Shown: piece after piece, positions 11,882 to 30,761 of the stretch
Layout: each line of letters begins with the position of its first letter
Numbering within the stretch: position 1 is the stretch's first letter
Assembly (NCBI GenBank): GCA_029269845.2
Contig: CP149973.1
Location: 1,920,001 to 1,952,000 of the forward strand
From: Opitutia bacterium KCR 482
Lineage (GTDB): Bacteria > Verrucomicrobiota > Verrucomicrobiia > Opitutales > Intestinicryptomonadaceae
Reading direction: 5' to 3'
Length of the DNA stretch: 32,000 nt
Translations under genes and position numbers: made by a program
Notes under the pieces: generated by a model
The model's database searches: none
What the model saw: the letters and a program-made list of their open reading frames with translations, nothing else
Told to the model about the DNA's origin: nothing

Positions 11882-11972
11882 TTTTTTTCTTTCTTCTATT
11901 TCTCTATTCGTAAACGTATATGTTTTTCGATAATGTTTGACTTTGTTGCGAAAACGGCTCATACGTTTGAGT

Positions 11973-13304
11973 ATGAAGAGGTTTATTGCATCTATTGCTT
12001 GTTTGGGGGCTTGGGCTGCGGTTTTCTCGGCTTCGGCTTTTGCCGAAAAATACATCACGCGCGACCAGCCCGTCGCCGACACTTTCATTAAAAAATACGG
12101 AAAGTCGTTTTACGTTGTCTCGCAAATCGGAGACTCGAAAGTGCCCGACGTTCTCGAACGTCTCGACCGCAAGGGCAGGGTGGCAAATGCCCTCGAATGG
12201 TCGCGCGAGGCGCGGGGGCAGATTCTCGAATTTTTTGACTCGCAAGTTTACGGCGCGATTCCCCCGCGCCCCGATTCCCAGAAATTCGAGCTTATAGAAT
12301 CGTCCGACGACGCCCTCGGCGGCATTGCCCTGCGCAGGCAGTACAGAATTACCGTTTCGGGAGCGGGCGGCTCGCTCTCGTTTGTGGCTCTTGTGTATCT
12401 GCCTAAAAACGGCGGCGCGAAAACGCCCGCGTTCATCTGCCCCAACTTCGACGGCAACTTTGTCGTTTCGCCCGAAGACGGAATCGCGACGGAAAACTAT
12501 GCGGCGACTCTTTCAGAAAAGAAACGCGCCCAGCTCCGCGCGGAAAAATCGACGCGCATTCCCGTTGCCGACATCGTTTCGCGCGGCTACGCAATCGCAA
12601 CGTTCTGCTACATGGACGTCTATCCCGACCGCAAGGGCGCGGCGGCGGCGGACGAAAGCGTCTACAAGATTTTCGGCAAAAAATTCGACTCGCGCCCCGC
12701 GATTGTCGCTTGGGCGTGGGGGAACATGCGCGTAGCCGACCTGCTTGAAACGCTGCCCGAAATCGACATGTCGAAGCTTGCGGTCGTCGGGCACTCGCGC
12801 CTCGGCAAGACCGCTCTGATTGCGGGCGCGCACGACCTCCGCTTTGCCTATGTCTGCTCGAACAACGCCGGCTGCATGGGCGAGGCTCTTACGCGCCGCA
12901 ACTACGGGGAATCGGCGGCGTCGATGGTAGACTTTAACTTTCCTTACTGGTTTTCCGCAAACTTCAAGAAGCACGCGCACGACGTTTCGTCGATGCCCGT
13001 CGACCAGCACCACCTTGTGTCGCTGATTGCCCCGCGCATGCTCTACACCACGAGTTCCTCCGAAGACTTCTGGGCCGACCCCGAAGGCCAGCTGCTCGGT
13101 CTGATAAACGCCGCGCCCGCGTTCGCGCTTTTCGGGGCGAAGAATTTTCCGACCCTCGACGCGCTCGAAATAGACTCGCCCTTCCACGGCGACATCGCCT
13201 ACCACATCAAGAGCGGCAGGCACAGCATAACGCCCTACGACTGGAAGAATTTTATGGACTACGCCGAAAAGCGCGGCTGGAAGCCCGTCCCCCCGAAAAA
13301 ATAA
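11973..13304 (+). CDS. Secreted alpha/beta-hydrolase, CE15-like (glucuronoyl esterase family)
   Basis: Signal peptide MKRFIASIACLGAWAAVFSASAFA. N-terminal W..EARGQILEFFDSQVYG..PPRP pattern and nucleophile motif VVGHSRLGKTAL, both of which I associate with bacterial CE15 enzymes. Start set at ATG 11973 (M13 of the listed ORF). Confidence 0.6.
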   Translation: MKRFIASIACLGAWAAVFSASAFAEKYITRDQPVADTFIKKYGKSFYVVSQIGDSKVPDVLERLDRKGRVANALEWSREARGQILEFFDSQVYGAIPPRPDSQKFELIESSDDALGGIALRRQYRITVSGAGGSLSFVALVYLPKNGGAKTPAFICPNFDGNFVVSPEDGIATENYAATLSEKKRAQLRAEKSTRIPVADIVSRGYAIATFCYMDVYPDRKGAAAADESVYKIFGKKFDSRPAIVAWAWGNMRVADLLETLPEIDMSKLAVVGHSRLGKTALIAGAHDLRFAYVCSNNAGCMGEALTRRNYGESAASMVDFNFPYWFSANFKKHAHDVSSMPVDQHHLVSLIAPRMLYTTSSSEDFWADPEGQLLGLINAAPAFALFGAKNFPTLDALEIDSPFHGDIAYHIKSGRHSITPYDWKNFMDYAEKRGWKPVPPKK

Positions 13305-13322: not shown

Positions 13323-14684
13323 ATGAAAAAACTTTCTATGTTTCTGATGTCGCTCTCCGCGTCCGCCCTGTTTGCGGCGGAGGCTGGCGAGCTTTACAAC
13401 CCCGACATGCCCGAAAAATCGTGCATGAAATTCAACAGGGTCGAAAAGGTCGCGATAAACTATGCGGAGGCGAAAGCCGACATCTACAAGAAGCTCGACA
13501 TTCTCGACAAAATAGGCGGGGGAGGGCGCGTCGAAACAGCCAAGCAGTGGCTCGACGGGGAGCGTCCGAAAGTCGTGAAATTTTTGGAGGAGGAGTATTT
13601 CGGCAAAATGCCTCCGCGCCCCGAAAAGCTCGAATTCAAGCTTGTCGAGTCGTCCGAAGACGCGCTCGGCGGAATCGCAAAGCGCAGGCAGTACAAGATA
13701 ATTTCCACCGACAAAAACGGAACGCACATTTTCAACGTTCTCATGTACTATCCGAAGTCGGCTTCGCGCGAAAATCCCGTGCCCGCGTTCATCTACACCA
13801 ACTACAACGGCAACCACATGACGGTTTCCGAGCCGGAAGTTCTGCTGCCCGAAGAGGGCACTTGGCTTTCGAACAGCAAAAGGGGGAAAATTACAGACAA
13901 CCGCGCCCACGATTACCAGCGCGGAACGGGCGCGCCGCGCAATCCGTTCAAGGACATCGTCTCGCGCGGCTACGCTGTCGCCACGTTCTGCTACTGCGAA
14001 ATCTACCCCGACAAGGAGCACATTCTCTCCGAAAACGAATCCGTGTTCCGCATCTTCGACAAGTCGGCGGTGGACAAGGATCCGCGCTGCATAGCCGCGT
14101 GGGCGTGGGGCGACTGCCGCGTCCTCGACTTGCTCGAAACCCTGCCGTTTATCGACCGCTCGAAAATCGGCGTCGCGGGGCACTCGCGGCTCGGCAAGAC
14201 CGCGCTGCTTGCGGGCGCGTACGACACGCGTTTTGCGCTCGCGGTCTCGAACAGCTCGTGCTGCGGCGGGGCGTCGATGAACAGGCGCAACTACGGCGAG
14301 AACCTGAAATTTGCGGCGACGTATTTCCCGTGCTGGTACAAGCCCAAAATGAAAGAGTATGCCGAAAACATAGAGAGCATGCCTATTGACGCCCAGCATA
14401 TGCTTGCGGCGATGGCTCCGCGCATGGTCTACGTTTTGAGCGGAACCAAGGACATTTGGGCCGACCCGAAAGGCGAGTTCATGTCGCTTGCCGAGGCCGG
14501 CAAAATCTACGCGCTTTTCGGCGCGAAAAAAATGGCGACTCCCGACGACTTGCGCGTAAAAAAGCCGTTTGTCGGCGACGGCTTCGGATATGTGCTGTAC
14601 GACGGACCGCACCAAATCGACGCGTACAACTGGAAGTGCATAATGGACTTCACCGACGCCCACGGCTGGACGAAGCGCAAATAG
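13323..14684 (+). CDS. Secreted CE15-like esterase, paralog of the preceding gene
   Basis: Signal peptide MKKLSMFLMSLSASALFA. Same motifs as its neighbour (ERPKVVKFLEEEYFGKMPPRP, VAGHSRLGKTALLAGAYD) and colinear with it along the whole length. Confidence 0.6.
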   Translation: MKKLSMFLMSLSASALFAAEAGELYNPDMPEKSCMKFNRVEKVAINYAEAKADIYKKLDILDKIGGGGRVETAKQWLDGERPKVVKFLEEEYFGKMPPRPEKLEFKLVESSEDALGGIAKRRQYKIISTDKNGTHIFNVLMYYPKSASRENPVPAFIYTNYNGNHMTVSEPEVLLPEEGTWLSNSKRGKITDNRAHDYQRGTGAPRNPFKDIVSRGYAVATFCYCEIYPDKEHILSENESVFRIFDKSAVDKDPRCIAAWAWGDCRVLDLLETLPFIDRSKIGVAGHSRLGKTALLAGAYDTRFALAVSNSSCCGGASMNRRNYGENLKFAATYFPCWYKPKMKEYAENIESMPIDAQHMLAAMAPRMVYVLSGTKDIWADPKGEFMSLAEAGKIYALFGAKKMATPDDLRVKKPFVGDGFGYVLYDGPHQIDAYNWKCIMDFTDAHGWTKRK

Positions 14685-17778: not shown

Positions 17779-17856
17779 AACCGCGCGGGGGCACGGCGTT
17801 AAATGGCAATTTATTGGCTTGATTGCCATGGCGTTTGTGTTTTGATTGAAAACAAT

Positions 17857-18909
17857 ATGGCATCTAAGAAAATCTTTATCATGGGCGTCAACGGGTTTAT
17901 CGGCTCGTCGCTCGCGTGGAAAATCCTCCAAAAGACCGAATGGGAAATCGTCGGCATGGACTTGGGCACAAATAAAATCGGGCACTGCCTCGGCAACCCG
18001 CGCTTCGCGTTCTTCGAAAAAAATATCTTCACCGACAAAGACTGGATTGAAGAACAAATAAAAGAGTGCGACGTCGTTGTGCCGCTCGTGGCAATCGCGA
18101 CACCCACGCTCTACGTCAAAGACCCCCTGCGCGTATACGAGCTGGACTACGAGTCGAACATCGACATCGTGAAAAAATGCGCAAAGTACGGCAAACGCAT
18201 CGTCTTTCCCTCGACTTCGGAAGTCTACGGCATGTGCCCCGACCGGAATTTCGACGAGTACAATTCGCCGCTCGTCCTCGGTCCCGTCCCGAAAGAACGC
18301 TGGATTTACTCGTGCATCAAGCAGATGCTCGACCGCGTAATCTGGGCGTACGGCAACCACGCGGGGCTGAAATTCACGCTCTTCCGCCCCTTCAATTTCA
18401 TCGGCCCGAAACTCGACGACATCACCGCCCCGAAGGAAGGCTCGTCGCGCGTGCTCACGCAGTTCGCGCACAACATCATCAACGGCAAGCCGATTAAGCT
18501 CGTAGACGGCGGAGCGCAAAAGCGCAGCTTCACGTTCATCGACGACGGCATAGAGTGCCTGCTCAAAATTTTGGAAAACAAGGACGGCTGCGCCGACGGA
18601 AAGATTTTCAACATCGGCAACCCCTACATGGAATTTTCAATCAAAGAGCTTGCCGACATGCTCGTGGAGCTTTTCGGCGAATATCCCGAATACGCCGAAC
18701 GCGCGAAGAACGCGAAAATCGAAAGCGTTTCGAGCGAGGAATACTACGGCAAGGGCTATCAGGACGTGTCGCGGCGCATGCCGTCGATTGCCGAGGCCGA
18801 GAAAGTTCTCGGCTGGAAACCGACCACCGACCTGCGCACCGCGCTAAAACTTACGCTCGACTACCACCTGCTCAAAAAGGACTACGAGCTTGGCGAAACT
18901 TCGAAATAA
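17857..18909 (+). CDS. UDP-glucuronate oxidative decarboxylase, homolog of the ArnA C-terminal dehydrogenase domain (stand-alone)
   Basis: Colinear by eye with the E. coli ArnA C-terminal domain: IFIMGVNGFIGS, KECDVVVPLVAIATP, DPLRVYELDYE, RIVFPSTSEVYGMC, RWIYSCIKQMLDRVIWAYG, FTLFRPFNFIGP, YYGKGYQDVSRRMPSI. No N-terminal formyltransferase domain, since the upstream gene ends at 17778. Confidence 0.85.
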   Translation: MASKKIFIMGVNGFIGSSLAWKILQKTEWEIVGMDLGTNKIGHCLGNPRFAFFEKNIFTDKDWIEEQIKECDVVVPLVAIATPTLYVKDPLRVYELDYESNIDIVKKCAKYGKRIVFPSTSEVYGMCPDRNFDEYNSPLVLGPVPKERWIYSCIKQMLDRVIWAYGNHAGLKFTLFRPFNFIGPKLDDITAPKEGSSRVLTQFAHNIINGKPIKLVDGGAQKRSFTFIDDGIECLLKILENKDGCADGKIFNIGNPYMEFSIKELADMLVELFGEYPEYAERAKNAKIESVSSEEYYGKGYQDVSRRMPSIAEAEKVLGWKPTTDLRTALKLTLDYHLLKKDYELGETSK

Positions 18910-18912
18910 CGT

Positions 18913-19800
18913 ATGAAGCTTGCCGTAAAAGTCGACATCGACACATACCGCGGGACGCGCGAGGGCGTTCCAAACCTCTGCAAACTTTTTAGGAAACACG
19001 GCGTTCCCGCGACGCTGCTGTTTTCGATGGGCCCCGACAATACGGGCAAGGCGCTCCGCAGGATTTTCAGGAAAGGGTTTCTGAAAAAGTGCCTGCGTTC
19101 GAATGTCGCGGGCAACTACGGGCTGAAAACCCTGCTCTACGGCACGCTGCTCAAAGCCCCGCGCATAGGCAAGCTTTGCGCCGACCAGATGCGGGCGGCT
19201 CGCGACGACGGCTTCGAATGCGGAATCCACTGCTGGGACCACTTCAAATGGCAGGACTATCTTCCGACAATGCGCCCGACGGAAATCGAGGCGGAGTTCA
19301 CAAAGGCGCGCGTCGAGTTCGAAAAAATCTTCGGCTACGAACCCAAGTTTTGCGGCGCACCCGGCTGGCAGATTACGCCCGACGCGCTCGAAGTGGAGGA
19401 CGGCGCAAACCTCCTCTACGCTTCCGACGTGCGGGGCGGCTTGCCGTTTGTGCCCACAATGGGCGGCAGAAAATTCAAAACGCTTCAAATTCCCTCGACA
19501 CTGCTGACGCTCGACGAAGTCTTGGGGCTTACGCCGCTCGAAAAAGTCGCCGACACGCACATTGCGGAGATGCGGAAAATCGGGCACTCGGTAATGACCG
19601 CGCACGCCGAGCTTGAAGGCATGGCGTATTTGGAGTGGTTCGACGCATTCCTTTCGAAAGTAAAATCGGAGGGCGCGAAATTTTACTCCCTTGCCGACTA
19701 CGCCAAGGAGATTCTGGCGAATCCGCAAACCGTGCGCACAGCCGAAATCAAAATGTCGCCGTTCACGGGGCGTTCGGGGACGCTCGCGGTTCAGTCCTGA
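18913..19800 (+). CDS. arnD: 4-deoxy-4-formamido-L-arabinose-phosphoundecaprenol deformylase-like (polysaccharide deacetylase family)
   Basis: The N-terminus KVDIDTYRGTREGVPNLCKLFRKHGVPATLLFSMGPDNTGKAL..LRSNVAGNYG parallels E. coli ArnD (RIDVDTFRGTREGVPRLL...FFSVGPDNMGRHL...LRSNAASLYG). Also has the HCWDH motif. Starts 3 nt after the previous stop. Confidence 0.85.
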   Translation: MKLAVKVDIDTYRGTREGVPNLCKLFRKHGVPATLLFSMGPDNTGKALRRIFRKGFLKKCLRSNVAGNYGLKTLLYGTLLKAPRIGKLCADQMRAARDDGFECGIHCWDHFKWQDYLPTMRPTEIEAEFTKARVEFEKIFGYEPKFCGAPGWQITPDALEVEDGANLLYASDVRGGLPFVPTMGGRKFKTLQIPSTLLTLDEVLGLTPLEKVADTHIAEMRKIGHSVMTAHAELEGMAYLEWFDAFLSKVKSEGAKFYSLADYAKEILANPQTVRTAEIKMSPFTGRSGTLAVQS

Positions 19801-19881
19801 TTTTTTTTTGAAAAATTTTTCTTTATTTCGAACAAAACCGTCCGATTACTGTCAGCAAATTTAGAAAGGAATAAATTTCGT

Positions 19882-20142
19882 ATGAAATCATTGGTATTGG
19901 CAACTATGTTGGGCGTTGCCGCGCTGTTTGTTGCGGCGTGCAACTGTCCGTCGAAATGCGCTCAGGCAAATCCCTCGTGCGCAACTGTTTGCAAGTGCAA
20001 TCCCTGCACGTGCAATCCCTGCGTTTGCAAGGATAAATGCGTTTGCAATCCCTGCCCCGCCGCCGCAAAATGCCCCGCGAAAGCTCAGGCATGCGCGAAC
20101 GCCAAGGCGGAGTGCGCAAAAAGCACATGTCCCGCAAAGTAG
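19882..20142 (+). CDS. Cysteine-rich (metallothionein-like) lipoprotein, 86 aa
   Basis: Signal peptide with lipobox MKSLVLATMLGVAALFVAA|C. The mature 67 aa contain 17 Cys in CxC/CxxC patterns with three CNPC repeats (KCNPCTCNPCVCKDKCVCNPCP), no aromatic residues and no His. RBS AAAGGA sits about 12 nt upstream. Followed by a strong terminator. Confidence 0.7.
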   Translation: MKSLVLATMLGVAALFVAACNCPSKCAQANPSCATVCKCNPCTCNPCVCKDKCVCNPCPAAAKCPAKAQACANAKAECAKSTCPAK

Positions 20143-20165
20143 TTTTTTTTCATAATAATCCCAAA

Positions 20166-20199
20166 GCGGTGTCGGAATTTTCCGATACCGCTTTTTTTT
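20166..20199 (+). terminator. Intrinsic terminator
   Basis: GCGGTGTCGG aatttt CCGATACCGC (one G-U pair, valid only in + sense) followed by TTTTTTTT. Confidence 0.8.
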
Positions 20200-21153: not shown

Positions 21154-21236
21154 GGCGGGCAGGGCGCGAAAATTTTTTCGAAAAAAAAGCTTGCGCGGAA
21201 CTTGAAAATCGTTTGTATGTCCAACCTATTAAATGT

Positions 21237-21313
<77 letters not shown>

Positions 21314-21956: not shown

Positions 21957-22631
21957 ATGAATCTTTATAAAGATACTCCGCGCACAAAAATAGAACAGCT
22001 TGTTCGCGAAACGGTATACAAAGAACTGAACCTGCCCGTTCCGCACCCCGCGGAAGGGCCGAATCCGTTGGTCGTGAACGTCAGCGCGCGCCACGTGCAC
22101 CTCACGCAGGAGGCGGTCGAGGCTCTGTTCGGCAAGGGCTACCAGCTCAACGTCCACAAATGGCTCTATCAAAAAGGGCAGTTTGCCGCAAAGGAATCCA
22201 TTACCCTCATCGGTCCGCGCAGCAGGGTTATTTCCAACCTGCGCATTTTGGGCCCGTGCCGCAAGGAAAGCCAAGTCGAGCTTGCCCTGACCGACGCCCG
22301 CGCATTGGGCTTCGACGTTCCCCCTAGAAACAGCGGCGACTTGAAGGGAACGCCCGGCTGCATGCTCATGGGCCCCGCGGGCTTTTACGAAATGCCCTTC
22401 GGGGTAATCCGCGCGGCGCGGCACGTGCACATGAGTCCCGCCGACGCCGAATTCTACGGCGTGAAAGACAAGGACATGATGAAGCTTCGCGTCTACGGCG
22501 AAAACTCCATTGTGTTCGAAAATCTCCTTTGCAGGGTTGATTCCGCGCTAAAACTCGAAGTCCACATCGATACAGACGAGGGCAACGCGTGCGACCTCAA
22601 CCCGCACTCGCTGTGCGAGCTTGTGAAATAA
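21957..22631 (+). CDS. pduL: Phosphate acyltransferase PduL (BMC-associated phosphotransacylase)
   Basis: Two PduL half-domains, each with an RHxH motif (VSARHVHLTQE and AARHVHMSPAD), and HIDTDEGNA near the C-terminus. The N-terminal amphipathic segment TKIEQLVRETVYKEL lies ahead of the core. Confidence 0.9.
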   Translation: MNLYKDTPRTKIEQLVRETVYKELNLPVPHPAEGPNPLVVNVSARHVHLTQEAVEALFGKGYQLNVHKWLYQKGQFAAKESITLIGPRSRVISNLRILGPCRKESQVELALTDARALGFDVPPRNSGDLKGTPGCMLMGPAGFYEMPFGVIRAARHVHMSPADAEFYGVKDKDMMKLRVYGENSIVFENLLCRVDSALKLEVHIDTDEGNACDLNPHSLCELVK

Positions 22632-22672
22632 TTTTCAATCTAAAAAAACAAATTCAATACGAAAGGCAAAAT

Positions 22673-22942
22673 ATGAGTCAGTCATTGGGAATGATAGAAA
22701 CCCGCGGTTTTACCGGTTGCGTTGAAGCGACCGACGCGATGGTCAAGGCGGCGAACGTCGAACTCGTCAAGCAGGTGCAAATCGGCGGCGGATACGTCAC
22801 GGCGATTGTGCGCGGCGACGTCGGCAGCGTAAAGGCGGCGGTCGAAGCGGGCAAACAGGCGGCGCAGGCGGTCGGCGAACTTGTGGGCGCGAACATCATC
22901 GCAAGCCCGCACCCGACGCTTCTCGAAAAAATGGGTCTCTAA
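22673..22942 (+). CDS. BMC-H shell protein (Pfam00936, PduA/EutM-like)
   Basis: MSQSLGMIETRGFTGCVEATDAMVKAANVELV..IGGGYVTAIVRGDVGSVKAAVEAG is the canonical BMC-domain signature. Start at ATG 22673 with RBS GAAAGG; the listed ORF begins upstream at 22589. Confidence 0.93.
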   Translation: MSQSLGMIETRGFTGCVEATDAMVKAANVELVKQVQIGGGYVTAIVRGDVGSVKAAVEAGKQAAQAVGELVGANIIASPHPTLLEKMGL

Positions 22943-22972
22943 TTTCAACACCTCGAAAAGGAATTTTACTAT

Positions 22973-23248
22973 ATGAAACAGGCATTGGCAATGGTTGAAA
23001 CCAAGGGTTTTGTTGCGGCTATGCAGGCTGCCGACGCGGCTGTCAAGGCGGCGAACGTGGAACTTTTGGGCTGGAAAAAAGTCGGAAGCGGCCTCGTGGC
23101 GGTATTCTTCACGGGCGACGTGGCATCGGCAAAGGCGGCGTTGGACTCGGCGGTCGAAGCGGCGGGCCGCATCGGCGAAGTTTCGTCCGCCGACGTAATC
23201 GCGCGTCCGCACGACGACCTCTCGAAACTCGGCTGCTTCTCGTTCTAA
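22973..23248 (+). CDS. BMC-H shell protein
   Basis: MKQALAMVETKGFVAAMQAADAAVKAANVELLGWKKVGSGLVAVFFTGDVASAKAALDSA. Confidence 0.93.
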   Translation: MKQALAMVETKGFVAAMQAADAAVKAANVELLGWKKVGSGLVAVFFTGDVASAKAALDSAVEAAGRIGEVSSADVIARPHDDLSKLGCFSF

Positions 23249-23261
23249 CAGGCAGGATACC

Positions 23262-24434
23262 GTGAAAAGAATTCTGATAGCAAACGTAGGTTCGACAAGC
23301 TACAAGTACACGGTTTTCGACGTGTCGGAAACGTGCAAGGAGCTTGTGCGCGGGGGAATCGAAAGAGTCTCCGACTACGAACTTGCGATTGCGCGCTCGC
23401 TTGAAGACTTGGCGGGAAAGGGCATTCCGAAAGAGTCGATTGACGCCGTTGCGTTCAAGACGGTCTTGGGTAAAGACCTGTCGGGACTGCGCGACGCCGA
23501 CTCGAAAGTGCTCGACGCCCTCGAAGCCATGAGCTACGTTGCGCCCGCGCACAACCCGCCCTACGCGGCGGCGATACGCGCGTTCGCAAAGGTTCTTCCG
23601 TCGGCGCGGGGCGTGGTGCTGTTCGAAACGTCGTTCTACCGCTGGGCGGACGCGGCGTGGAAACGCTACGCCGTGCCGAAAAGCTGGGACGAAATCGGAA
23701 TTCGCAGAAACGGCTTCCACGGGGCGAGCCACAAATTCGCCGCCGAACGCGTCGCGGAGCTTTGCGGAGAGGCTGAGGCCGCCGAAAGCGCGCGCATGCT
23801 GTACGTCAACGACGGGCCGATGAAGCTTGCAAAACCGTTCAGAATGGTGAACTGCCACTTGGGCGGGTCGTCGTCGGTTTGCGGCATACTAAACGGCGCG
23901 GCGGTCGGTTCGAGCATGGGCTTCACGCCCCAGAGCGGGCTTCCCCAAAACAACAGAGTTGGCGACTTGGACTCGATGGCGATTCCCTTCGCAATGAAAA
24001 CGCTGGGAATTACCGCCGAAGAGGCGGCGTCGGAACTGTCCAAAAAAGGCGGGCTTCTCGGAATAAGCGGCGTCTCCAACGACATGCGCGACGTCCGCGC
24101 GGCGGCGGAGGCGGGCAACCGCGACGCGGAGCTTGCGATAGACGTTTTGGCGTACGCGGCGAGATCGTACATCGGGCAGTTCATGGCGCAAATGGGCGGC
24201 TTGGACGCAATCGGGTTCAGCGGCGGAATAGCCGAAAACAACCCGTGGCTCAGGGCTAAGATTCTCGATCCGCTCGCGGGCTTGGGCGTCGTAGTGGACG
24301 CGGAGAAAAATTCGAAACTCGTAAAGGCGGAGGGCGTGTTCTCTTCGCCGGATTCAAAAATCAAGGCGGTCGCGGTCGTCGCAAACGAGGAAATCGTGAT
24401 AGCGCGCGAGGCCGCTGGGTACTTGAAAAAATAA
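23262..24434 (+). CDS. ackA: Acetate/propionate kinase family (acyl-phosphate kinase of the BMC pathway)
   Basis: GTG start. ILIANVGSTSYKY N-terminus, NGFHGASHKF, VNCHLGGSSSVCG and GGIAENNPWLR are ASKHA acetate-kinase motifs. 390 aa. Confidence 0.88.
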   Translation: MKRILIANVGSTSYKYTVFDVSETCKELVRGGIERVSDYELAIARSLEDLAGKGIPKESIDAVAFKTVLGKDLSGLRDADSKVLDALEAMSYVAPAHNPPYAAAIRAFAKVLPSARGVVLFETSFYRWADAAWKRYAVPKSWDEIGIRRNGFHGASHKFAAERVAELCGEAEAAESARMLYVNDGPMKLAKPFRMVNCHLGGSSSVCGILNGAAVGSSMGFTPQSGLPQNNRVGDLDSMAIPFAMKTLGITAEEAASELSKKGGLLGISGVSNDMRDVRAAAEAGNRDAELAIDVLAYAARSYIGQFMAQMGGLDAIGFSGGIAENNPWLRAKILDPLAGLGVVVDAEKNSKLVKAEGVFSSPDSKIKAVAVVANEEIVIAREAAGYLKK

Positions 24435-24462
24435 AATTTAATAACTAAAAAAAGGCAAAAAA

Positions 24463-24753
24463 ATGGCAAACGCAATCGGTATATTGGAAACACAGGGAAT
24501 GGTAGCCCTCGTAAAGGGCGTAGACGCAATGCTCAAAGCGGCGAGCGTAAGCTTGGCGGGGCAGTACAAGGACGTCGGCAGCGCGTACATGAGCGCGGCG
24601 GTCGTCGGCGACGTTGCGTCGGTAAAGGCGGCGGTCGAAGCGGGAGCTACGGCGGCGGGCGAAGTCGGCAAGGTTTGCAGCGTGCACGTAATCGCGCGTC
24701 CGAACGAAAACACCGAAGCCATTCTCGCGCCCAAAGCGGCTTCCAAGAAATAA
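24463..24753 (+). CDS. BMC-H shell protein with a short Lys/Ala-rich C-terminal tail
   Basis: MANAIGILETQGMVALVKGVDAMLKAASVSL..VGSAYMSAAVVGDVASVKAAVEAG, with tail ...NENTEAILAPKAASKK. Confidence 0.92.
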   Translation: MANAIGILETQGMVALVKGVDAMLKAASVSLAGQYKDVGSAYMSAAVVGDVASVKAAVEAGATAAGEVGKVCSVHVIARPNENTEAILAPKAASKK

Positions 24754-24771
24754 AAACGGAAACGTTCCGAC

Positions 24772-25083
24772 ATGTATCTTGCAAAGGTCATAGGGCAGGT
24801 TGTAGCCACACAGAAGGACGACAAGCTCAGAGGCAGCAGACTTTTGGTGCTGCGTCCGTTGCAGATTGACGGCGAAAAGCCCGCAAAGCTCGTCGAGAGC
24901 AGGAGCGCGATAGTCGCGGTGGACAACTGCGGCGCGGGGACGGGGCAGATTGTCCTGTTCGCGTCGGGGTCGAGCGCGCGTCAGGCGGAGGGCATGAAGG
25001 CTCTTCCTGTTGACGCGGCGGTCATCGGGCTTGTAGACAGCGTTGAGGCGTTTTCGCAGGAGGTTTTCAAAGTCGAAAAATAG
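24772..25083 (+). CDS. BMC-P pentamer vertex protein (EutN/CcmL, Pfam03319)
   Basis: MYLAKVIGQVVATQKDDKLRGSRLLVL...VDNCGAGTGQIVLFASGSSAR...VDAAVIGLVD. Confidence 0.9.
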   Translation: MYLAKVIGQVVATQKDDKLRGSRLLVLRPLQIDGEKPAKLVESRSAIVAVDNCGAGTGQIVLFASGSSARQAEGMKALPVDAAVIGLVDSVEAFSQEVFKVEK

Positions 25084-25146
25084 GCGGCGCAAGCCGCGCT
25101 ACCAAATTGGGAACGCGGCGGCGCAAAAATTTAAGGAAGGCAAAAC

Positions 25147-26592
25147 ATGGGCATAAATTTGGACGAAGCTGCGCTCAGACAGATAGTGCGCGGCGTAATC
25201 GAGCAAATGGGCGGGGCGCAGGGCGCGCAGCAGTGCCGCTGCGGCGGCGCGGCTCCCGCAATAGTGCATTCAACCCCCATGAACGGGATTTTCCCCGATG
25301 CAAAGTCGGCGGCGGAGGCAGCGTTCGACGGGTACAAACAACTTTGCAAGGGTGGTTTCGAAGCCCGCAAGGCGGTAGTGGACATCGTGAAGTCGATGAC
25401 GGTCGCCAACGCGAAAGAGTGGGGCACTTTCGAATACAACGAAACGAAAATCGGCAAGCTCGAACACAAAATCGGCAAGCTTGAAATCGTGAAACTCGTC
25501 CCCGGCGTCGAGTGGATTCGCCCCGACGCGTACAGCGGCGACCATGGAATCATGCTCGAAGAGTACACACCCTACGGGGTCGTCGGCGCGATTACGCCCG
25601 TCACGCACTCGATTCCCACGATTGCCGGCAACATCATCAACATGGTCGCCGCGGGCAACGCGATAGTTTTCAACCCGCACCCCGGCGGCGTCAAGAGCGC
25701 GGTGAAGGCGATTTCGGCGTTCAACGCGGAAATCGAAAAACGCCTCGGCATACGCAACCTTATTTGCTGCGTCGGCAACCCGACGCTCGAATCGTTCGAC
25801 GCAATCTGCAAGAGCGATTTGGTATCTATAATGTGCATTACGGGCGGCCCTGGGGTCGTCAAGGCGGCGATGCTTTCGGGCAAAAAGTCCATTTGCGCGG
25901 GTCCGGGCAATCCCCCCGTGATTGTCGACGACACTGTCGATTTGAACAAGGCTGCCGCCGACATCATCGCGGGAGGCTGCTTCGACAACAATCTGCTTTG
26001 CATAGGCGAAAAGGAAATCTTCGTCCTCGAAAGCGTAGCCGACGCGTTCATGCGCGCGCTCGACGCGCAGGGAGCGGTTAAAATCGGCGGAAGCGCGCTC
26101 GACAGGCTCACCGACGCCGTGTTCGCAAAGAAGGACGGCCGCTACGTTCTCAAACGCGACTTGGTCGGCAAAGACCCGCAGGTTCTGGCGCAGGCGGCAG
26201 GCGTTTCGGTTTCGGCGAACGCGCCCATGCTCTACGCGCAGACCGACGCAAACCACCCGTTTGTGGTCGAAGAACAGATGATGCCGATGATTCCCGTGAC
26301 GGTTGTGAAAGACTTCGATTCGGCGGTTGACGCGGCGATGAAGGCGGAACACAACTACAAGCACAGCGCGATAATCCACTCGCTGAACGTCGGCAGAATG
26401 ACGCAAATGGCGCGGGCGCTCAACACCACGCTTTTCGTCAAGAACGGGCCTTCCACATGCGGCTTGGGTCTGGGCGGCGAGGGCTACCTTTCGTACTCGA
26501 TTGCCACGGCGACGGGCGAAGGCATATCGAACCCCAAGACGTTTACGCGCCGCCGCAGGTGCGTAATGGTGGACAACCTCAACATATTCTAA
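25147..26592 (+). CDS. CoA-acylating aldehyde dehydrogenase (PduP/EutE-like) with an N-terminal encapsulation-peptide-like helix
   Basis: ITPVTHSIPTIAGNIINMVAAGNAIVFNPHP, ICAGPGNPPVIVDDT and the catalytic-Cys context FDNNLLCIGEKE. The N-terminus LDEAALRQIVRGVIEQM is followed by a Gly/Ala/Gln linker. Confidence 0.9.
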   Translation: MGINLDEAALRQIVRGVIEQMGGAQGAQQCRCGGAAPAIVHSTPMNGIFPDAKSAAEAAFDGYKQLCKGGFEARKAVVDIVKSMTVANAKEWGTFEYNETKIGKLEHKIGKLEIVKLVPGVEWIRPDAYSGDHGIMLEEYTPYGVVGAITPVTHSIPTIAGNIINMVAAGNAIVFNPHPGGVKSAVKAISAFNAEIEKRLGIRNLICCVGNPTLESFDAICKSDLVSIMCITGGPGVVKAAMLSGKKSICAGPGNPPVIVDDTVDLNKAAADIIAGGCFDNNLLCIGEKEIFVLESVADAFMRALDAQGAVKIGGSALDRLTDAVFAKKDGRYVLKRDLVGKDPQVLAQAAGVSVSANAPMLYAQTDANHPFVVEEQMMPMIPVTVVKDFDSAVDAAMKAEHNYKHSAIIHSLNVGRMTQMARALNTTLFVKNGPSTCGLGLGGEGYLSYSIATATGEGISNPKTFTRRRRCVMVDNLNIF

Positions 26593-26637
26593 ACAAAACG
26601 GCGCGTTCGGCGGAGCGTCGGACGCGCCAAGACAAAA

Positions 26638-26895
26638 ATGCAGCTTGCGAAAATAGTCGGAAACATCGTGATGTCCCACGCGCATTCGAGCGTGTCGGGC
26701 AACGCGCTGCTCGTCTGCCAGCCCATCGACGAAAACGGGGCGGAGGCGGGAGAGCCTATTGTCGCGATAAGCCCCTTCGGGGGCGGCGCGGGGTCGCGGG
26801 TGCTGGTGCTCGCCGACGGCAGCGTCGCGGCGGAGTATGTGGGCGACAGCCACACGCCGATTCGCAACTCGATAGTCTGCATTTTGGACGACTGA
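26638..26895 (+). CDS. BMC-P pentamer vertex protein
   Basis: MQLAKIVGNIVMSHAHSSVSGNALLVCQPID...GGGAGSRVLVLADGS...IRNSIVCILDD. Confidence 0.88.
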   Translation: MQLAKIVGNIVMSHAHSSVSGNALLVCQPIDENGAEAGEPIVAISPFGGGAGSRVLVLADGSVAAEYVGDSHTPIRNSIVCILDD

Positions 26896-26903
26896 TTTTT
26901 TAC

Positions 26904-27203
26904 ATGAAACTGGCAAGGGTAATAGGCAGGGTTGTTCTCTCGAAGAAAGACGCAAATCTTCCGAGCGGGTTCCTGCTGCTTGCGTCGCCGCTCGACAGGT
27001 CGCAGATGTCGGGGGCGGACTCGTCGGAGCTTTCGAAGCGGACGAAAAACCTCGTGGTTTTCGATTCGTTCGGGGCGGTTCGCGGCGACGTCATAGGCTA
27101 TGTCGAAGGGGCGGAGGCAACCGCGCCTTTCGAAACGCCCGCGTGCGTGGACGCGTACAATGTCGGCATAGTCGAGACTTTAAACTACAATCCGAATTTA
27201 TAA
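26904..27203 (+). CDS. BMC-P pentamer vertex protein (third paralog)
   Basis: MKLARVIGRVVLSKKDANLPSGFLLLASPLD...VDAYNVGIVETL. ATG at 26904, inside the longer listed ORF 26457..27203 whose upstream part overlaps the aldehyde dehydrogenase out of frame. Confidence 0.85.
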   Translation: MKLARVIGRVVLSKKDANLPSGFLLLASPLDRSQMSGADSSELSKRTKNLVVFDSFGAVRGDVIGYVEGAEATAPFETPACVDAYNVGIVETLNYNPNL

Positions 27204-27215
27204 ACACAGACAAAG

Positions 27216-28265
27216 ATGAAAAGAGTATACACGGCAAAAGACATCGAAGAACTCAAACTAAACGGCGGAAGCGTTCCCGCCGGCGCAATCCTCACCCCGC
27301 AGGCGAAAGAGCTTCTCGCGGGCGGAGCGTTCGTCGCGTCGCAACCGAAACCGCAGGCGGCGGTGCGCAAAGAGTACACCGTTCCCGTCAAGGAATACAA
27401 GTGGGTTTCGGGGCAGGACCCCAAGACGCCCGAAGAAATCGAAAAGTTCTTCCGCTCGCCCGAAATCGAAAAACTCAAAAGGCTGATTGTAGACTTGGGC
27501 AGACGCTCGTACTCCAAAAACTACAACGACGGCAACGGCGGCAATTTCAGCGTCAGAGTGGGCGACAACCTCGTGCTCTGCACGCCCACGATGATTTCGA
27601 AAGGCTCGATGTCGCCCGAAGACATGTGCCTTGTGGACATGGAGGGCGTTCAGCTTGCGGGCAACAGAAAGCGCACAAGCGAAGTCCTCGCGCACATCGC
27701 GATTATGAAACGCCAGCCCATGGCAAAGGCGTGCTGCCACGCGCATCCGCCGCACGCAACGGCGTTCGCGATTTCGGGTAAAACGCCGCCGCGCTGCGTC
27801 AACCCCGAAGCCGAAATCTTCATCGGTCAGGTCGGCCTTGCCGACTACGGCACGCCCGGAACGCTCCAAATGGCGAACGCAGTCGGCGAATGCGGCGTCA
27901 ACCACGACTGCGTTTTCATGGTAAACCACGGCGTCATGACCTGGGCTAACGACATCGAAACGGCCTTCTGGAAAATGGAAAACGTGGAGGCGCACTGCTT
28001 TACGTCGCTGCTGGCGTTCCAAATCGGCGGGCCGAGAAGATTCTCCGATTCGGAAGAAGCGGAGGTTCTCAAAATCAGAAAGTCGCTCGGCATGGTAGAC
28101 CAGGCGAACCTCAAAGAATGCAACCTTTGCGACGTTCCCGAAAACAGGGGAGTTGTCTGCAACGCAAAGTCGCCCGCACGGCAGAACGACGCGGGCTTCG
28201 ACTGCGACGCCGAAAAACTCGTCGCAAAAATCACGCAAATGATAGTCGCGGAGCTTAACAAATAA
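27216..28265 (+). CDS. Class II aldolase (fuculose/rhamnulose-1-phosphate aldolase family) with N- and C-terminal extensions
   Basis: The core begins near res 75-95 (EIEKLKRLIVDLGRRSYSKNYNDGNGGNFSVR, cf. FucA ..GTAGNVSVR). Metal-binding His motifs CCHAHPPHATAF and MVNHGVMTW. The C-terminus ends in the amphipathic DAEKLVAKITQMIVAELNK. Confidence 0.88.
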   Translation: MKRVYTAKDIEELKLNGGSVPAGAILTPQAKELLAGGAFVASQPKPQAAVRKEYTVPVKEYKWVSGQDPKTPEEIEKFFRSPEIEKLKRLIVDLGRRSYSKNYNDGNGGNFSVRVGDNLVLCTPTMISKGSMSPEDMCLVDMEGVQLAGNRKRTSEVLAHIAIMKRQPMAKACCHAHPPHATAFAISGKTPPRCVNPEAEIFIGQVGLADYGTPGTLQMANAVGECGVNHDCVFMVNHGVMTWANDIETAFWKMENVEAHCFTSLLAFQIGGPRRFSDSEEAEVLKIRKSLGMVDQANLKECNLCDVPENRGVVCNAKSPARQNDAGFDCDAEKLVAKITQMIVAELNK

Positions 28266-29185
28266 TGAAAGTTTCAATCATAGGAGGCGGCGGCAGGGTA
28301 GGCTCGTGCGCGGCGTTCGCGCTCGAATGCATGGGTCTTGTATCGGAAATCCAGATTATCGACGCCAACGCGGAGGCGGCGGAGGGCGAAGCTCTCGACC
28401 TGCTCCACGGCTCGGCGGTTCTGGGCGGACAGCGCATCAACACGGGGTGCTACAAACGCGCCGCCGACAGCGACATGTTCATAATCACGGCGGGGCTCCG
28501 CCGCAAGCCCGACGAAAGCAGGCTCGACCTCATCAACCGCAACGTATCGCTCTTCCGCCAGATTCTGGCGTCGATAAAAGAGGGCGGCTACAAGCGCGAC
28601 GCGTTCGTGTTCGTGGTGTCGAACCCCGTGGACATTCTCACATACATCGCCGCGCAGGAGCTTGATTTGCCGCGCGAGCGCGTAATCGGCTTGGGCACAA
28701 TGCTCGACACCTCGCGCTTCCGCGCACTGATTGCGAAGGAACTGAAAGTGCCCGCAACTCAGGTCAACGCTACGGTGCTCGGCGAACACGGAGACTCTAT
28801 GTTCCCCGTGTGGAGCGCGGCGTCAATCGCGGGGCTTCCGTTCAAGGGCTTTGAAGGCTTCGACCTCAACTTCCAGAACAGGATTTTCGAACGCACGCGC
28901 CAGAGCGGCGCGGAGGTTATCAAACGCAAAGGCGGCGCGGGATACGCAGTCGGGGCGTCGATAGCGGCGGTGGTCAGGGCGATTCTGCTGGACACGCGCG
29001 AAATTCTCCCCGTTTCGACAGTGCAGACGGGCGCGTACGGACTGCGCGACGTTTCGATAAGCGTTCCGACAGTCGTAGGGGCGGCGGGCGCGCTGAGGCA
29101 TGTGGAGCTTGAACTCTGGCCGAAGGAGTCGCAGGCGCTGCTGAACTCGGCAAACTCGCTCAAACAGACCTTGGCAAAAGTCTAA
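28265..29185 (+). CDS. LDH/MDH-family 2-hydroxyacid dehydrogenase with an MDH-type specificity loop
   Basis: MKVSIIGGGGRVGS Rossmann motif, ITAGLRRKPDESRLDL substrate loop, NPVDILTY, LDTSRFR and GEHGDS (catalytic His). The ATG overlaps the aldolase stop (TAATG at 28263-28267). Confidence 0.88.
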   Translation: MKVSIIGGGGRVGSCAAFALECMGLVSEIQIIDANAEAAEGEALDLLHGSAVLGGQRINTGCYKRAADSDMFIITAGLRRKPDESRLDLINRNVSLFRQILASIKEGGYKRDAFVFVVSNPVDILTYIAAQELDLPRERVIGLGTMLDTSRFRALIAKELKVPATQVNATVLGEHGDSMFPVWSAASIAGLPFKGFEGFDLNFQNRIFERTRQSGAEVIKRKGGAGYAVGASIAAVVRAILLDTREILPVSTVQTGAYGLRDVSISVPTVVGAAGALRHVELELWPKESQALLNSANSLKQTLAKV

Positions 29186-29627: not shown

Positions 29628-30761
29628 TTATTTTGCGAAAAAGGCTTCGATGGAATCCACTACCCAGTCCTGCTCGTCGGGCGTGATTGCCGAGTATATG
29701 GGCAGGCGCAGCATTGTCTGCGACAGCTTTTCGGCGACGGGCAGCGGTTTGTATTCGCAGCCGAGCTTTTTCGTCATCGGGCATGTGTGCAGCGGCGCGT
29801 AGTGCGACAACGCCGAAATCTCGCGCGATTTCAGGAACGCCGCAAGCGACTTCGCAGTTTCGGGGCTTTCCGTTAGAATGAAGAAAATATGCGCGTTATG
29901 TTTGCATTCCGCGGGAACATGCGCCAGCGAAATCTTCCCCGCGCGTTCCAGCGGCAGAAGCCTTTCGCGGTAGTAGTTCCACGCCGCCACGCGTTCGTCG
30001 GTGAGTTTCTGCGCGGCTTCGAGCTGCGCCGCGAGGAACGCGGTGATAAGCTCCGACGGAATGTAGCTGCTGCCGTAGTCAATCCAAGTGTATTTGTCGA
30101 TTTTCCCCTCTACGAACTGGATTCTGTTTGTGCCCTTTTCCCTGATGAAGCAGGCGCGGTCGATGAGGGATTCGTCGTTGCAAAGGAGTGCGCCGCATTC
30201 GCCCGCGATTACGTTCTTTGTGCTGTGGAAGCTGAGCGCGCCGAGGTCGCCGATAGTGCCGAGGTGTCTGCCTTTGTAGTAGGCGCAGAAGCCCTGCGCG
30301 GCGTCCTCCACAACCCTGATTCCCGCGCTTTTTGCGGTTTCCATAATTGTGTCCATTTCGCACCCGACGCCCGCGTAGTGGACTGGCACGACCGCCTTTG
30401 TGCGCTTTGTGAGCAGTTGCGGAATTTGCGATTCGTCGATATTGAGAGTGTCGGGGCGAATGTCGCAGAACACTGGTTTTGCGCCGCGCAGAACGAACGC
30501 GTTTACGCTCGAAACGAATGTGAACGTCGGCACGATTACCTCGTCGCCCGATTTGATGTCGCATAGGAGGGCCGCCATGTCTAGGGCGGAGGTGCACGAT
30601 GTCGTAAGGAGGGCGGCTTTCGCCTTTGTCGCGGCGCGGAGGGCGGCTTCGCATTTTTTCAGGAACTCGCCGTCGCCTTGGAGGTGTCCGGAGGCTATCG
30701 CTTCTTTTATATATTCTACTTCGCGACCCGCGAGCGGTATTTTGTTGAAATTTACTTTCAT
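29628..30761 (-). CDS. wecE: dTDP-4-amino-4,6-dideoxygalactose (sugar 4-keto) transaminase, DegT/DnrJ/EryC1 family, WecE-like
   Basis: Colinear by eye with E. coli WecE: GDGEFLKKCE, LTTSCTSALDMAALLCDIKSGDEVIVPTFTFVSSVNAFVLRGAKPVFCDIRPDTLNIDE, VPVHYAGVGCEMDTIM, VVEDAAQG, FSFHSTKN (PLP Lys), IREKGTNR, VDKYTWIDYGSSY. Confidence 0.8.
   Translation of the reverse strand: MKVNFNKIPLAGREVEYIKEAIASGHLQGDGEFLKKCEAALRAATKAKAALLTTSCTSALDMAALLCDIKSGDEVIVPTFTFVSSVNAFVLRGAKPVFCDIRPDTLNIDESQIPQLLTKRTKAVVPVHYAGVGCEMDTIMETAKSAGIRVVEDAAQGFCAYYKGRHLGTIGDLGALSFHSTKNVIAGECGALLCNDESLIDRACFIREKGTNRIQFVEGKIDKYTWIDYGSSYIPSELITAFLAAQLEAAQKLTDERVAAWNYYRERLLPLERAGKISLAHVPAECKHNAHIFFILTESPETAKSLAAFLKSREISALSHYAPLHTCPMTKKLGCEYKPLPVAEKLSQTMLRLPIYSAITPDEQDWVVDSIEAFFAK

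Follow-up and report, generated by a model that had tools for sequence, protein, structure and literature searches.

To our knowledge, all metallothioneins described so far are cytoplasmic. The small cysteine-rich proteins SmtA/BmtA and MymT act in bacteria as buffers of Zn(II) or Cu(I), and the storage of many Cu(I) ions on cysteine thiolates outside the cytoplasm is well described for only one exported bacterial protein, Csp1 (PMC7558416). In plants, metallothioneins have a conserved C-terminal metal-binding motif, GANCKCNPCNC (PMC11151532). OmcA is an outer-membrane lipoprotein of 9 kDa, rich in cysteine, in the disulfide-cross-linked chlamydial outer membrane complex (PMC2811131). Here we describe a gene of Opitutia bacterium KCR 482 that encodes a small, very cysteine-rich lipoprotein precursor. 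The gene lies in a stretch of 32,000 nucleotides (contig CP149973.1, positions 1,920,001 to 1,952,000), hereafter called the window, to which the coordinates below refer unless another locus is named. The protein is best described as an exported, lipid-anchored variant of the metallothionein kind, the main alternative being an OmcA-like structural role.

An exported cysteine-rich protein with a tandem-repeat core

The precursor starts with MKSLVLATMLGVAALFVAACNCPSKC and ends with CPAK. Split at the predicted cleavage site, the product of the open reading frame (ORF) 19882-20142(+) gives MKSLVLATMLGVAALFVAA and CNCPSKCAQANPSCATVCKCNPCTCNPCVCKDKCVCNPCPAAAKCPAKAQACANAKAECAKSTCPAK. The gene and its parts are as follows:

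19882..20142, + strand: coding sequence of the 86-residue Cys-rich lipoprotein precursor, stop codon included (ORF call and translation)
19882..19938, + strand: signal peptide, residues 1-19, with K2 followed by a hydrophobic core
19930-19941, + strand: codons of the lipobox V-A-A-C (V17-A18-A19-C20)
19939..20139, + strand: mature chain of 67 residues, with a predicted lipidated Cys at position +1, 16 further Cys, a net charge of +7 and the CPAK end
19990..20055, + strand: CxCNP tandem-repeat core with a 15-nt (5-residue) unit, encoding CKCNPCTCNPCVCKDKCVCNPC (Tandem Repeats Finder)

The protein carries predicted signals for both export and lipidation. The criterion used for lipoproteins was the regular-expression form of PROSITE PS51257, i.e. 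a positively charged N-terminus, a hydrophobic core and a lipobox [LVI][ASTVI][GAS]C with the Cys at position 15-35; the window protein agrees with it through K2, the core L4-A19 and V17-A18-A19-C20. The mature chain has a mass of about 6.7 kDa, and 17 of its 67 residues (25.4%) are Cys. The rest consists of A14, K9, P8, N6, S3, T3, V3, Q2, D1 and E1, and there is no His, Phe, Trp or Tyr in the 67-residue chain. Successive Cys are spaced by 1, 3, 6, 3, 1, 2, 1, 2, 1, 3, 1, 2, 5, 6, 6 and 4, that is, in CxC, CxxC and CxxxC arrangements, with a C-terminal stretch spaced 4-6 residues.

Composition and motifs, as read from the translated gene, are of metallothionein type. Operationally, metallothioneins are recognized by a mass below 10 kDa, about 15-33% Cys in CxC, CxxC or CC motifs, and few or no aromatic residues and His; the window protein falls within these limits, with no aromatic residue and no His. 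A cytoplasmic location, typical of metallothionein families though not formally defining, is not what the signal peptide and the lipobox indicate here.

The repeat core is distinctive at the DNA level. The sequence TGCAATCCCTGC occurs exactly three times in the window, at 19996, 20011 and 20044, every copy being inside the ORF. Tandem Repeats Finder gives a period of 15 nt and about 3.8 copies at 19996-20055, with a reported copy range of 2.2-3.8. In peptide form, the CxCNPC module of the window protein is CKCNPCTCNPCVC. A six-frame translation of the window yields no other coding-frame stretch of such Cys density, all other stretches with at least 7 Cys per 40 residues being out-of-frame ORFs.

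Comparison with known families

At E<=10, the Cys-rich protein matches no family of Pfam or NCBIfam and no PDB sequence, and a tblastn search against plasmids gave no match. The mean predicted local distance difference test score of AlphaFold2 was 65 with the single sequence and 46 with a family alignment of 7 sequences. Only residues 46-60, which are rich in Ala and Lys, were consistently helical, at low confidence, and a Foldseek search of the model against the PDB returned nothing below E=6.6.

The CKCNPCxC octet found in plant type 1-3 metallothioneins is identical in the core of the window protein (PMC11151532). The likeness to metallothioneins (the plant C-terminal domain and other CxC/CxxC types) extends to the size of about 6-7 kDa, the 25% of Cys, the absence of His and aromatic residues and the Lys placed by Cys. 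It also includes a modular, repeat-based evolution and the lack of an autonomous fold, as far as structure prediction indicates for the window protein. The window protein differs from metallothioneins in having a Sec signal peptide and a lipobox, and no Pfam metallothionein family matches it at E<=10. SmtA/BmtA (Pfam PF02069, Metallothio_Pro) and MymT are likewise small, bacterial and Cys-rich. Unlike them, the window protein has no His and no zinc-finger-like core, is far denser in Cys, is exported and has no adjacent metal-sensing repressor; there is also no sequence match between them. Csp1 has about 120 residues and is exported by the Tat pathway as a pre-folded four-helix bundle, whereas the window protein has 67 residues and a signal of the Sec/signal peptidase II type. 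Membership of the Csp1/Csp3 (DUF326) group is contradicted by the lack of a Pfam match, of a twin-arginine motif, of a four-helix bundle in the AlphaFold2 model and of a PDB match.

Chlamydial OmcA is the nearest architectural analogue, with a host from the Planctomycetes-Verrucomicrobia-Chlamydiae (PVC) superphylum, a near-equal size, a lipoprotein nature and a very high Cys content (PMC2811131). The window protein has the OmcA-type traits of small size, Cys richness and a lipoprotein signal. It gives no match to Pfam PF03503 (Chlam_OMP3) at E<=10, and no chlamydial protein was retrieved by an exhaustive phmmer search. It also differs from OmcA in its CxCNP repeats, in the absence of OmcB/MOMP partner genes from the window and in being dispensable in close relatives. 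Braun's lipoprotein Lpp resembles it by its small size (58 vs. 67 residues), a short transcription unit of its own, a helical segment rich in Ala and Lys and a C-terminal Lys, which is present and conserved in our family. Lpp is a continuous coiled coil whose only Cys is the lipidated one, whereas the predicted helix of the window protein is limited to residues 46-60; neither a match to the Pfam LPP HMM nor a continuous heptad coiled coil was found.

Selection and sequence variation

Identical or near-identical proteins were called on many gut metagenome contigs, and the protein MDY5582996.1, from a metagenome-assembled genome (MAG) in GenBank assigned to Candidatus Merdousia sp. (Opitutales, Intestinicryptomonadaceae), is a member of the same family. 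The sequences fall into two clades with 54-61% identity between them: Clade A (86 residues: the window, L001-L006, L088 and L093) and Clade B (83 residues: L007, L009, L103, L122 and P0130). The ratio of nonsynonymous to synonymous substitution rates (dN/dS) is 0.10-0.37 within clades and about 0.15 between clades, where synonymous sites are saturated. Across both clades, 14 of the 18 Cys columns are invariant vs. 19 of the 52 other mature columns (Fisher p=0.005). These values identify a real gene, subject to purifying selection.

The number of Cys is nevertheless variable. The third CNPC unit corresponds to a 5-residue indel, present in Clade A and missing from Clade B, and the core grew by gain and loss of 15-nt repeats, as metallothioneins often do. 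Individual Cys are gained or lost through single G-to-A or G-to-T changes (N/Y/C at column 30, C/F at column 39, C/Y at column 41). These single-base C-to-Y and C-to-F changes account for the 16, 15 or 14 free Cys of natural variants. Most variants of both clades have 16 free Cys, at partly different positions (column 30 vs. column 60). An odd count of 15 is found in two independent lineages (L009; P0004/7/8), and in the L007/P0130 lineage two Cys were lost together. The same substitutions are the source of the aromatic residues of the relatives (0-3, vs. 0 in the window protein). All relatives keep a net charge of +5 to +7, with Lys beside Cys throughout, and both clades have retained the C-terminal Lys (CPAK). 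A selective retention of Cys combined with a variable count is easier to reconcile with adaptable thiolate clusters than with a single fixed disulfide knot. Taken as a sign of disulfides, the parity of Cys points both ways, as 16, 15 and 14 free Cys are all represented.

An independent transcription unit

The following signals surround the gene, the last one being a second copy of the promoter-like element further downstream:

19830..19853, + strand: promoter-like element GAAC-N16-TGTC, conserved, ending 28 nt 5' of the ATG
19865..19870, + strand: ribosome-binding site (RBS) AAAGGA, read off the sequence, 11 nt 5' of the ATG
20163..20199, + strand: intrinsic terminator with a 14-bp stem and a 4-nt loop followed by T8 (hairpin 20163-20194, minimum free energy -27.5 kcal/mol)
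21198-21221: second copy of GAAC-N16-TGTC, 15 nt 5' of tRNA-Met (CAT; 21237-21313)

GAAC-N16-TGTC is found at identical internal spacing in all ten orthologous loci, which represent three diverged lineages, while the remaining spacer has diverged; it is located 22-30 nt 5' of the ATG in these loci. In the alignment of the ten upstream regions, the GAAAGG of the RBS is invariant. A hairpin terminator, which in the window begins 20 nt 3' of the gene, is also kept in all ten loci. Since Clade B and L010 carry differing hairpins at the same place, the terminator is conserved as a feature and not as a sequence. An Rfam search around the gene produced sub-threshold matches only, all of them on the terminator. 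The conserved promoter-like element, the GAAAGG of the RBS and the strong terminator make the lipoprotein gene an independent monocistronic unit. The Cys-rich gene thus has its own transcription unit. The preliminary description of this DNA, made from the sequence alone, had already pointed out the RBS and the strong terminator. It was also correct throughout in its account of the protein (lipobox, mature chain of 67 residues, 17 Cys and their spacings, absence of His and aromatic residues, three repeats).

The promoter-like element resembles the promoter tGTTAC-N16-CGTC of extracytoplasmic function (ECF) sigma factors and the GGAACTT -35 element (PMC3397946). We dropped an ECF-sigma reading, with stress induction, as the same conserved element precedes tRNA-Met and no enrichment was seen in the window: three copies were found vs. 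0.9 expected, and 31 vs. 24 when one mismatch was allowed. The tRNA-Met copy has been kept in Clades A and B; in L010 and L011, it is degenerate. Because of this copy and of the lack of enrichment, we took GAAC-N16-TGTC as evidence for an own promoter only. The element may represent a promoter form typical of these Opitutales as a lineage.

Distribution and turnover of the locus

The family is restricted to a narrow group of gut bacteria. Queried with the single sequence, a word-indexed collection of 5.8 billion proteins gave back only its own cluster, and the profile version of this search added only the Clade B cluster and one fragment. An exhaustive phmmer search of 1.84 billion representatives found no relative beyond these two clusters, except for one match that we rejected. 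In total, the family consists of two clusters at 90% identity; the members of both come from Merdousia-like gut Opitutales, and the gene is always placed between an ArnD-like gene and an exonuclease gene. The rejected match, P0009 (E=1.2e-4), is a eukaryote-like low-complexity protein that has only the CxCNPCxC module in common with the family. This sole non-family phmmer match is acidic, 175 residues long, begins with MGQ and contains two modules, CKCDPCTCTPCTC and CTCNPCTCNPCNC.

Two statements of the preliminary description bear on this distribution. It had judged the protein unlike SmtA/BmtA and MymT, which agrees with the lack of any Pfam or NCBIfam match at E<=10 and of any such relative in the exhaustive phmmer search. 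Its suggestion to look for homologues with metal-related neighbours led to none: all homologues found belong to one genus-level clade, and the surrounding 50 kb or so hold no metal genes.

With the upstream ArnD-like gene as an anchor, the locus was surveyed across 80 species-representative genomes. The Cys-rich lipoprotein is present only where ArnD is at least 84% identical (L006, L007 and L009). In L010 (ArnD 77% identical), the same promoter-like element is followed, at the same position, by a different exported protein, rich in Cys, Ala and Pro, which is not a lipoprotein; the PS51257-style expression, which also matches Clade B, fails on this positional orthologue. This gene of a gut Opitutales MAG (L010 4965-5258(+)) follows arnD and encodes 97 residues with CPAxC repeats, its coding sequence being nearly unalignable. 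In L011 (ArnD 73% identical), there is nothing between arnD and the exonuclease gene, which directly abut. In L008 and L012-L021, an enolase gene, a methyltransferase-like ORF or a Sel1-repeat gene occupies the slot instead. Judging from this pattern among the 80 genomes, the locus is home to a fast-evolving exported Cys-rich gene that arose in one small lineage of gut Opitutales.

The GC content of the ORF equals that of the window (0.56), no flanking repeats were seen, and its GC content at third codon positions (GC3) is somewhat below that of the flanking genes (0.62 vs. 0.74-0.77), in a check for horizontal transfer.

In many related Opitutales (L013-L021), the protein encoded directly after arnD is a secreted Sel1-repeat protein, and the window also has a Sel1-repeat gene at 7106-8032. 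A further gut Opitutales MAG has a gene for a secreted Cys-rich protein of another kind (L025 1101-1511(-); CKCPSDKNC..., CKCPGANCTC..., CNCGSACVC...). This ORF is truncated by a scaffold gap of 100 N and adjoins an rpoZ-like gene, not the arnD locus.

The CxCNPC module in other small proteins

A degenerate DNA scan of metagenomes for CNPCxCNPC recovered more than 120 loci. On in-frame analysis, the extended module CxCNPCxCNPCxC was present in many unrelated small ORFs without signal peptides. Two of the families are represented by these loci:

L086 1073-1168, + strand: marine IscU-linked micro-ORF, also in L113, L128, L162, L168, L175, L180, L181, L183 and L199
L163 7152-7301, + strand: soil family of 49 residues, also in L105, L115, L117, L134, L140, L153, L155, L160, L165, L178, L182 and L205

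The marine family (MTTKVNMCKCNPCTCNPCKCKGIK, about 24-31 residues) is encoded directly 3' of an IscU/NifU-type Fe-S scaffold gene in 10 out of 10 loci. The IscU part of these loci has 73% DNA identity to the NifU-like gene of phage C48C1. The leaderless Cys-rich family of 49 residues (MSQSPVPQESACGCANRGCTCNPCRCNPCGCGGHKQDVR...) is found on high-GC, actinobacterial-looking soil contigs and is, judging from its sequence, a candidate for an unannotated bacterial metallothionein family. Further carriers of the module are peptides of 16-24 residues such as MKDCKCNPCNCNPCNC and ciliate-metallothionein-like repeat proteins (L173). A few other carriers are exported proteins (L126, L096 and L133). No Pfam or NCBIfam family matches the module-bearing small-ORF families. 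As the module recurs in leaderless peptides of the reducing cytoplasm, it would be a set of thiolate ligands and not a disulfide scaffold.

Possible functions of the protein

The best explanation, which we rank first and hold tentatively, is that the protein acts as a metal-thiolate sink of the metallothionein kind in the cell envelope. In this model, the small lipoprotein would be exported via Sec, lipidated on Cys20 and tethered in the envelope. Its 16 remaining thiols, concentrated in the CxCNP repeat core, would behave like those of a metallothionein. In the reducing, anoxic gut, the chain, without a hydrophobic core or a fold of its own, would wrap soft metal ions as metal-thiolate clusters, with neighbouring lysines offsetting the cluster charge. 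The metal would most likely be Cu(I), Zn(II) and Cd(II) being possible, and the protein could serve as a sink or buffer that traps thiophilic metals ahead of their entry into the cytoplasm. We infer the reduced state of the thiols, the binding of metal, the identity of this metal and the physiological role. This explanation is ranked first because of the motifs, the pairing of Lys with Cys, the tolerance of odd Cys counts, the modular repeats, the absence of a predicted fold and the patchy distribution. Confinement to one genus-level clade, with absence from L011 and replacement in L010, is more in keeping with an accessory gene for stress or detoxification than with a core structural protein. 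A metal sink would also make physiological sense in view of established copper biology, since Cu(I) persists under anoxia and periplasmic detoxification that depends on oxygen is then not usable.

Several observations weigh against such a sink. The genes of known bacterial metallothioneins usually lie beside, or under the control of, a metal sensor. Here, neither CopA, Cus, CsoR, CueR nor ArsR/SmtB genes, nor ECF sigma/anti-sigma or Dsb genes, were found within about 50 kb, over the window and its flanks as extended by about 10 kb on the left and about 3 kb on the right. The sharing of the promoter-like element with a tRNA gene hints at a strong constitutive expression that is not induced by metal. 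The mostly even number of free Cys (16) and the paired loss of Cys in L007/P0130 also fit disulfides. In addition, the likeness to the plant metallothionein motif is probably convergent, as the match is short and of low complexity. The metallothionein-like interpretation of the preliminary description therefore stands in part: it agrees with the composition, the CKCNPCxC octet, the occurrence of the module in leaderless ORFs and the counts of 14, 15 or 16 free Cys, and it fails for the metal-related neighbours.

The even count and the joint loss of two Cys, with the 16 free Cys of both clades at partly different positions, are the kind of evidence expected for a serious rival, which we rank second and find rather unlikely, namely an OmcA-like, disulfide-cross-linked envelope lipoprotein. 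Intra- or intermolecular disulfides would then stiffen or seal the outer membrane, for instance during oxygen exposure between hosts, and the protein might be tethered like Lpp. In overall design the two proteins agree: both come from bacteria of the PVC superphylum, carry a lipoprotein signal and are rich in Cys, with a mature chain of about 7-9 kDa (PMC2811131). The small monocistronic unit, with its good RBS, strong terminator and tRNA-type element, is compatible with an abundant constitutive protein, and the conserved C-terminal Lys (CPAK) and the predicted helix of the Ala/Lys-rich residues 46-60 recall Lpp. Neither Chlam_OMP3 nor LPP of Pfam matches the protein at E<=10, however, and the window has no OmcB- or MOMP-like partner. 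The odd count of 15 free Cys in two independent lineages (L009; P0004/7/8) also speaks against this rival, and the CxC-xx-CxC-xx-CxC run is typical of metal-thiolate proteins. AlphaFold predicts no confident compact fold, and the loss or replacement of the gene in L008, L010 and L011 would be unexpected for a load-bearing component of the envelope. The same tolerance of a variable Cys number, with the very high thiol density, the flexible and apparently unstructured chain, the predicted exported and membrane-anchored location, the gut anaerobe host (Candidatus Merdousia) and the absence of metal genes nearby, would also suit a sacrificial thiol buffer of the envelope. Such a buffer would scavenge oxidants (O2-derived species, HOCl), electrophiles or sulfane sulfur/polysulfide on the surface of a strictly anaerobic cell close to the mucosa, metal not being its physiological ligand. 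We regard it as distinctly improbable: the window and its extended flanks show no adjacent gene for a reductase or a partner in recycling (DsbD/CcdA, thioredoxin-like lipoprotein, Msr), stoichiometric scavenging without recycling is costly, and the conserved CxCNPC register with its paired Lys is better explained by cluster geometry than by bulk thiol.

Two further explanations start from the rapid turnover and the restricted occurrence of the gene. Rapid divergence between lineages and replacement at the locus, as seen in interaction or arms-race genes, could point to a surface peptide, i.e. a cationic Cys-rich adhesin exchanging disulfides with host mucins or a defensin- or bacteriocin-like antagonist. 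The conserved net charge of +5 to +7 and a neighbourhood devoted to the use of host and plant glycans (glucuronoyl esterases, bacterial microcompartment locus) go in the same direction. This role seems very improbable, as dN/dS is well below 1 with no sign of diversifying selection, the lipid anchor speaks against a released toxin, and no immunity, processing or export genes are adjacent. The orphan status of the family in one genus-level clade, the tandem-repeat core and the GC3 of 0.62 vs. 0.74-0.77 in the flanks might even suggest a non-functional ORF, arisen by chance or recently from repeat expansion. This is essentially excluded by dN/dS values of 0.1-0.35, by the saturation of synonymous sites between clades and by the preferential conservation of Cys. 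Moreover, lineages with 54-61% identity still have the signal peptide and lipobox as well as the RBS, promoter-like element and terminator.

If the metal-thiolate sink is retained, a wider proposal can be made, which for now is doubtful. The protein would be the first natural metallothionein working outside the cytoplasm, guarding the envelope of a gut anaerobe against Cu(I)/Zn. Its core would be one instance of a widespread unannotated metal-thiolate module, also present in the IscU-linked marine micro-peptides, the 49-residue peptides and other exported proteins. As no relatives are detectable outside its own genus, it could be the first case of such a metal-thiolate protein located in the envelope.

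Genomic neighbourhood

Upstream of the gene are two glucuronoyl esterase genes and genes encoding an FAD oxidoreductase, an Exo_endo_phos protein, an NAD epimerase/dehydratase and an ArnD-like deformylase. The two esterase genes are tandem paralogues (11937-13304 and 13323-14684), and both match GCE_fung, the fungal-type glucuronoyl esterase (E about 1e-32 to 1e-34). Downstream are an RNase T-type exonuclease gene, tRNA-Met and a bacterial microcompartment (BMC) locus of the Planctomycetes/Verrucomicrobia type. This complete BMC locus (21957-29185) contains PTAC, BMC shell genes, EutN pentamer genes and genes for acetate kinase, aldehyde dehydrogenase, class II aldolase and lactate/malate dehydrogenase, a content that is consistent with the use of fucose or rhamnose. 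The extended flanks add Rho, CoaE, a peptide deformylase, a CBM9 protein, an ADP-ribosylglycohydrolase and a ferredoxin. These neighbours offer no clue to the function of the Cys-rich gene; among them are no transporter of copper or zinc, no metal sensor, no Dsb protein and no sigma/anti-sigma pair.

The arn-like genes for lipid A modification (L-Ara4N) are scattered, at 17803-19800 (NAD epimerase/dehydratase and ArnD-like deformylase) and 29628-30761(-) (DegT-type aminotransferase), and neither a formyltransferase nor ArnT was identified in the window. An operon link between the Cys-rich gene and the upstream arn-like genes was rejected, since the former has its own promoter-like element and terminator. 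The relatives also oppose this link, as arnD abuts the exonuclease gene in L011 and is followed elsewhere by a Sel1-repeat gene or an enolase gene. On a contig with an identical DegT protein (L206 11249-12470), a CbiQ-like gene beside PTAC replaces the block of tRNA-Met, exonuclease and Cys-rich genes, which suggests a strain-level rearrangement at the edge of the microcompartment locus.

Significance for envelope biology

The finding is real, and the reading given in the preliminary description is partly supported. Gut microbes meet high dietary Cu and Zn. In bacteria, metal buffering by metallothioneins is known only from the cytoplasm, and only one exported Cys-based copper store is well described, namely Csp1, a rigid helix bundle that is exported by Tat. 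If the metal-thiolate sink is true, a flexible, lipid-anchored, metallothionein-like protein would represent a new layer of envelope metal defence. It would be relevant to anaerobes, where Cu(I) remains stable and periplasmic copper oxidases, which depend on oxygen, are of no use. The interest extends beyond this gene, to the several conserved unannotated micro-ORF families that have the same Cys module. If the disulfide-armour alternative is true, the OmcA principle would be extended to Verrucomicrobia, which would bear on the evolution of the envelope in the PVC superphylum.

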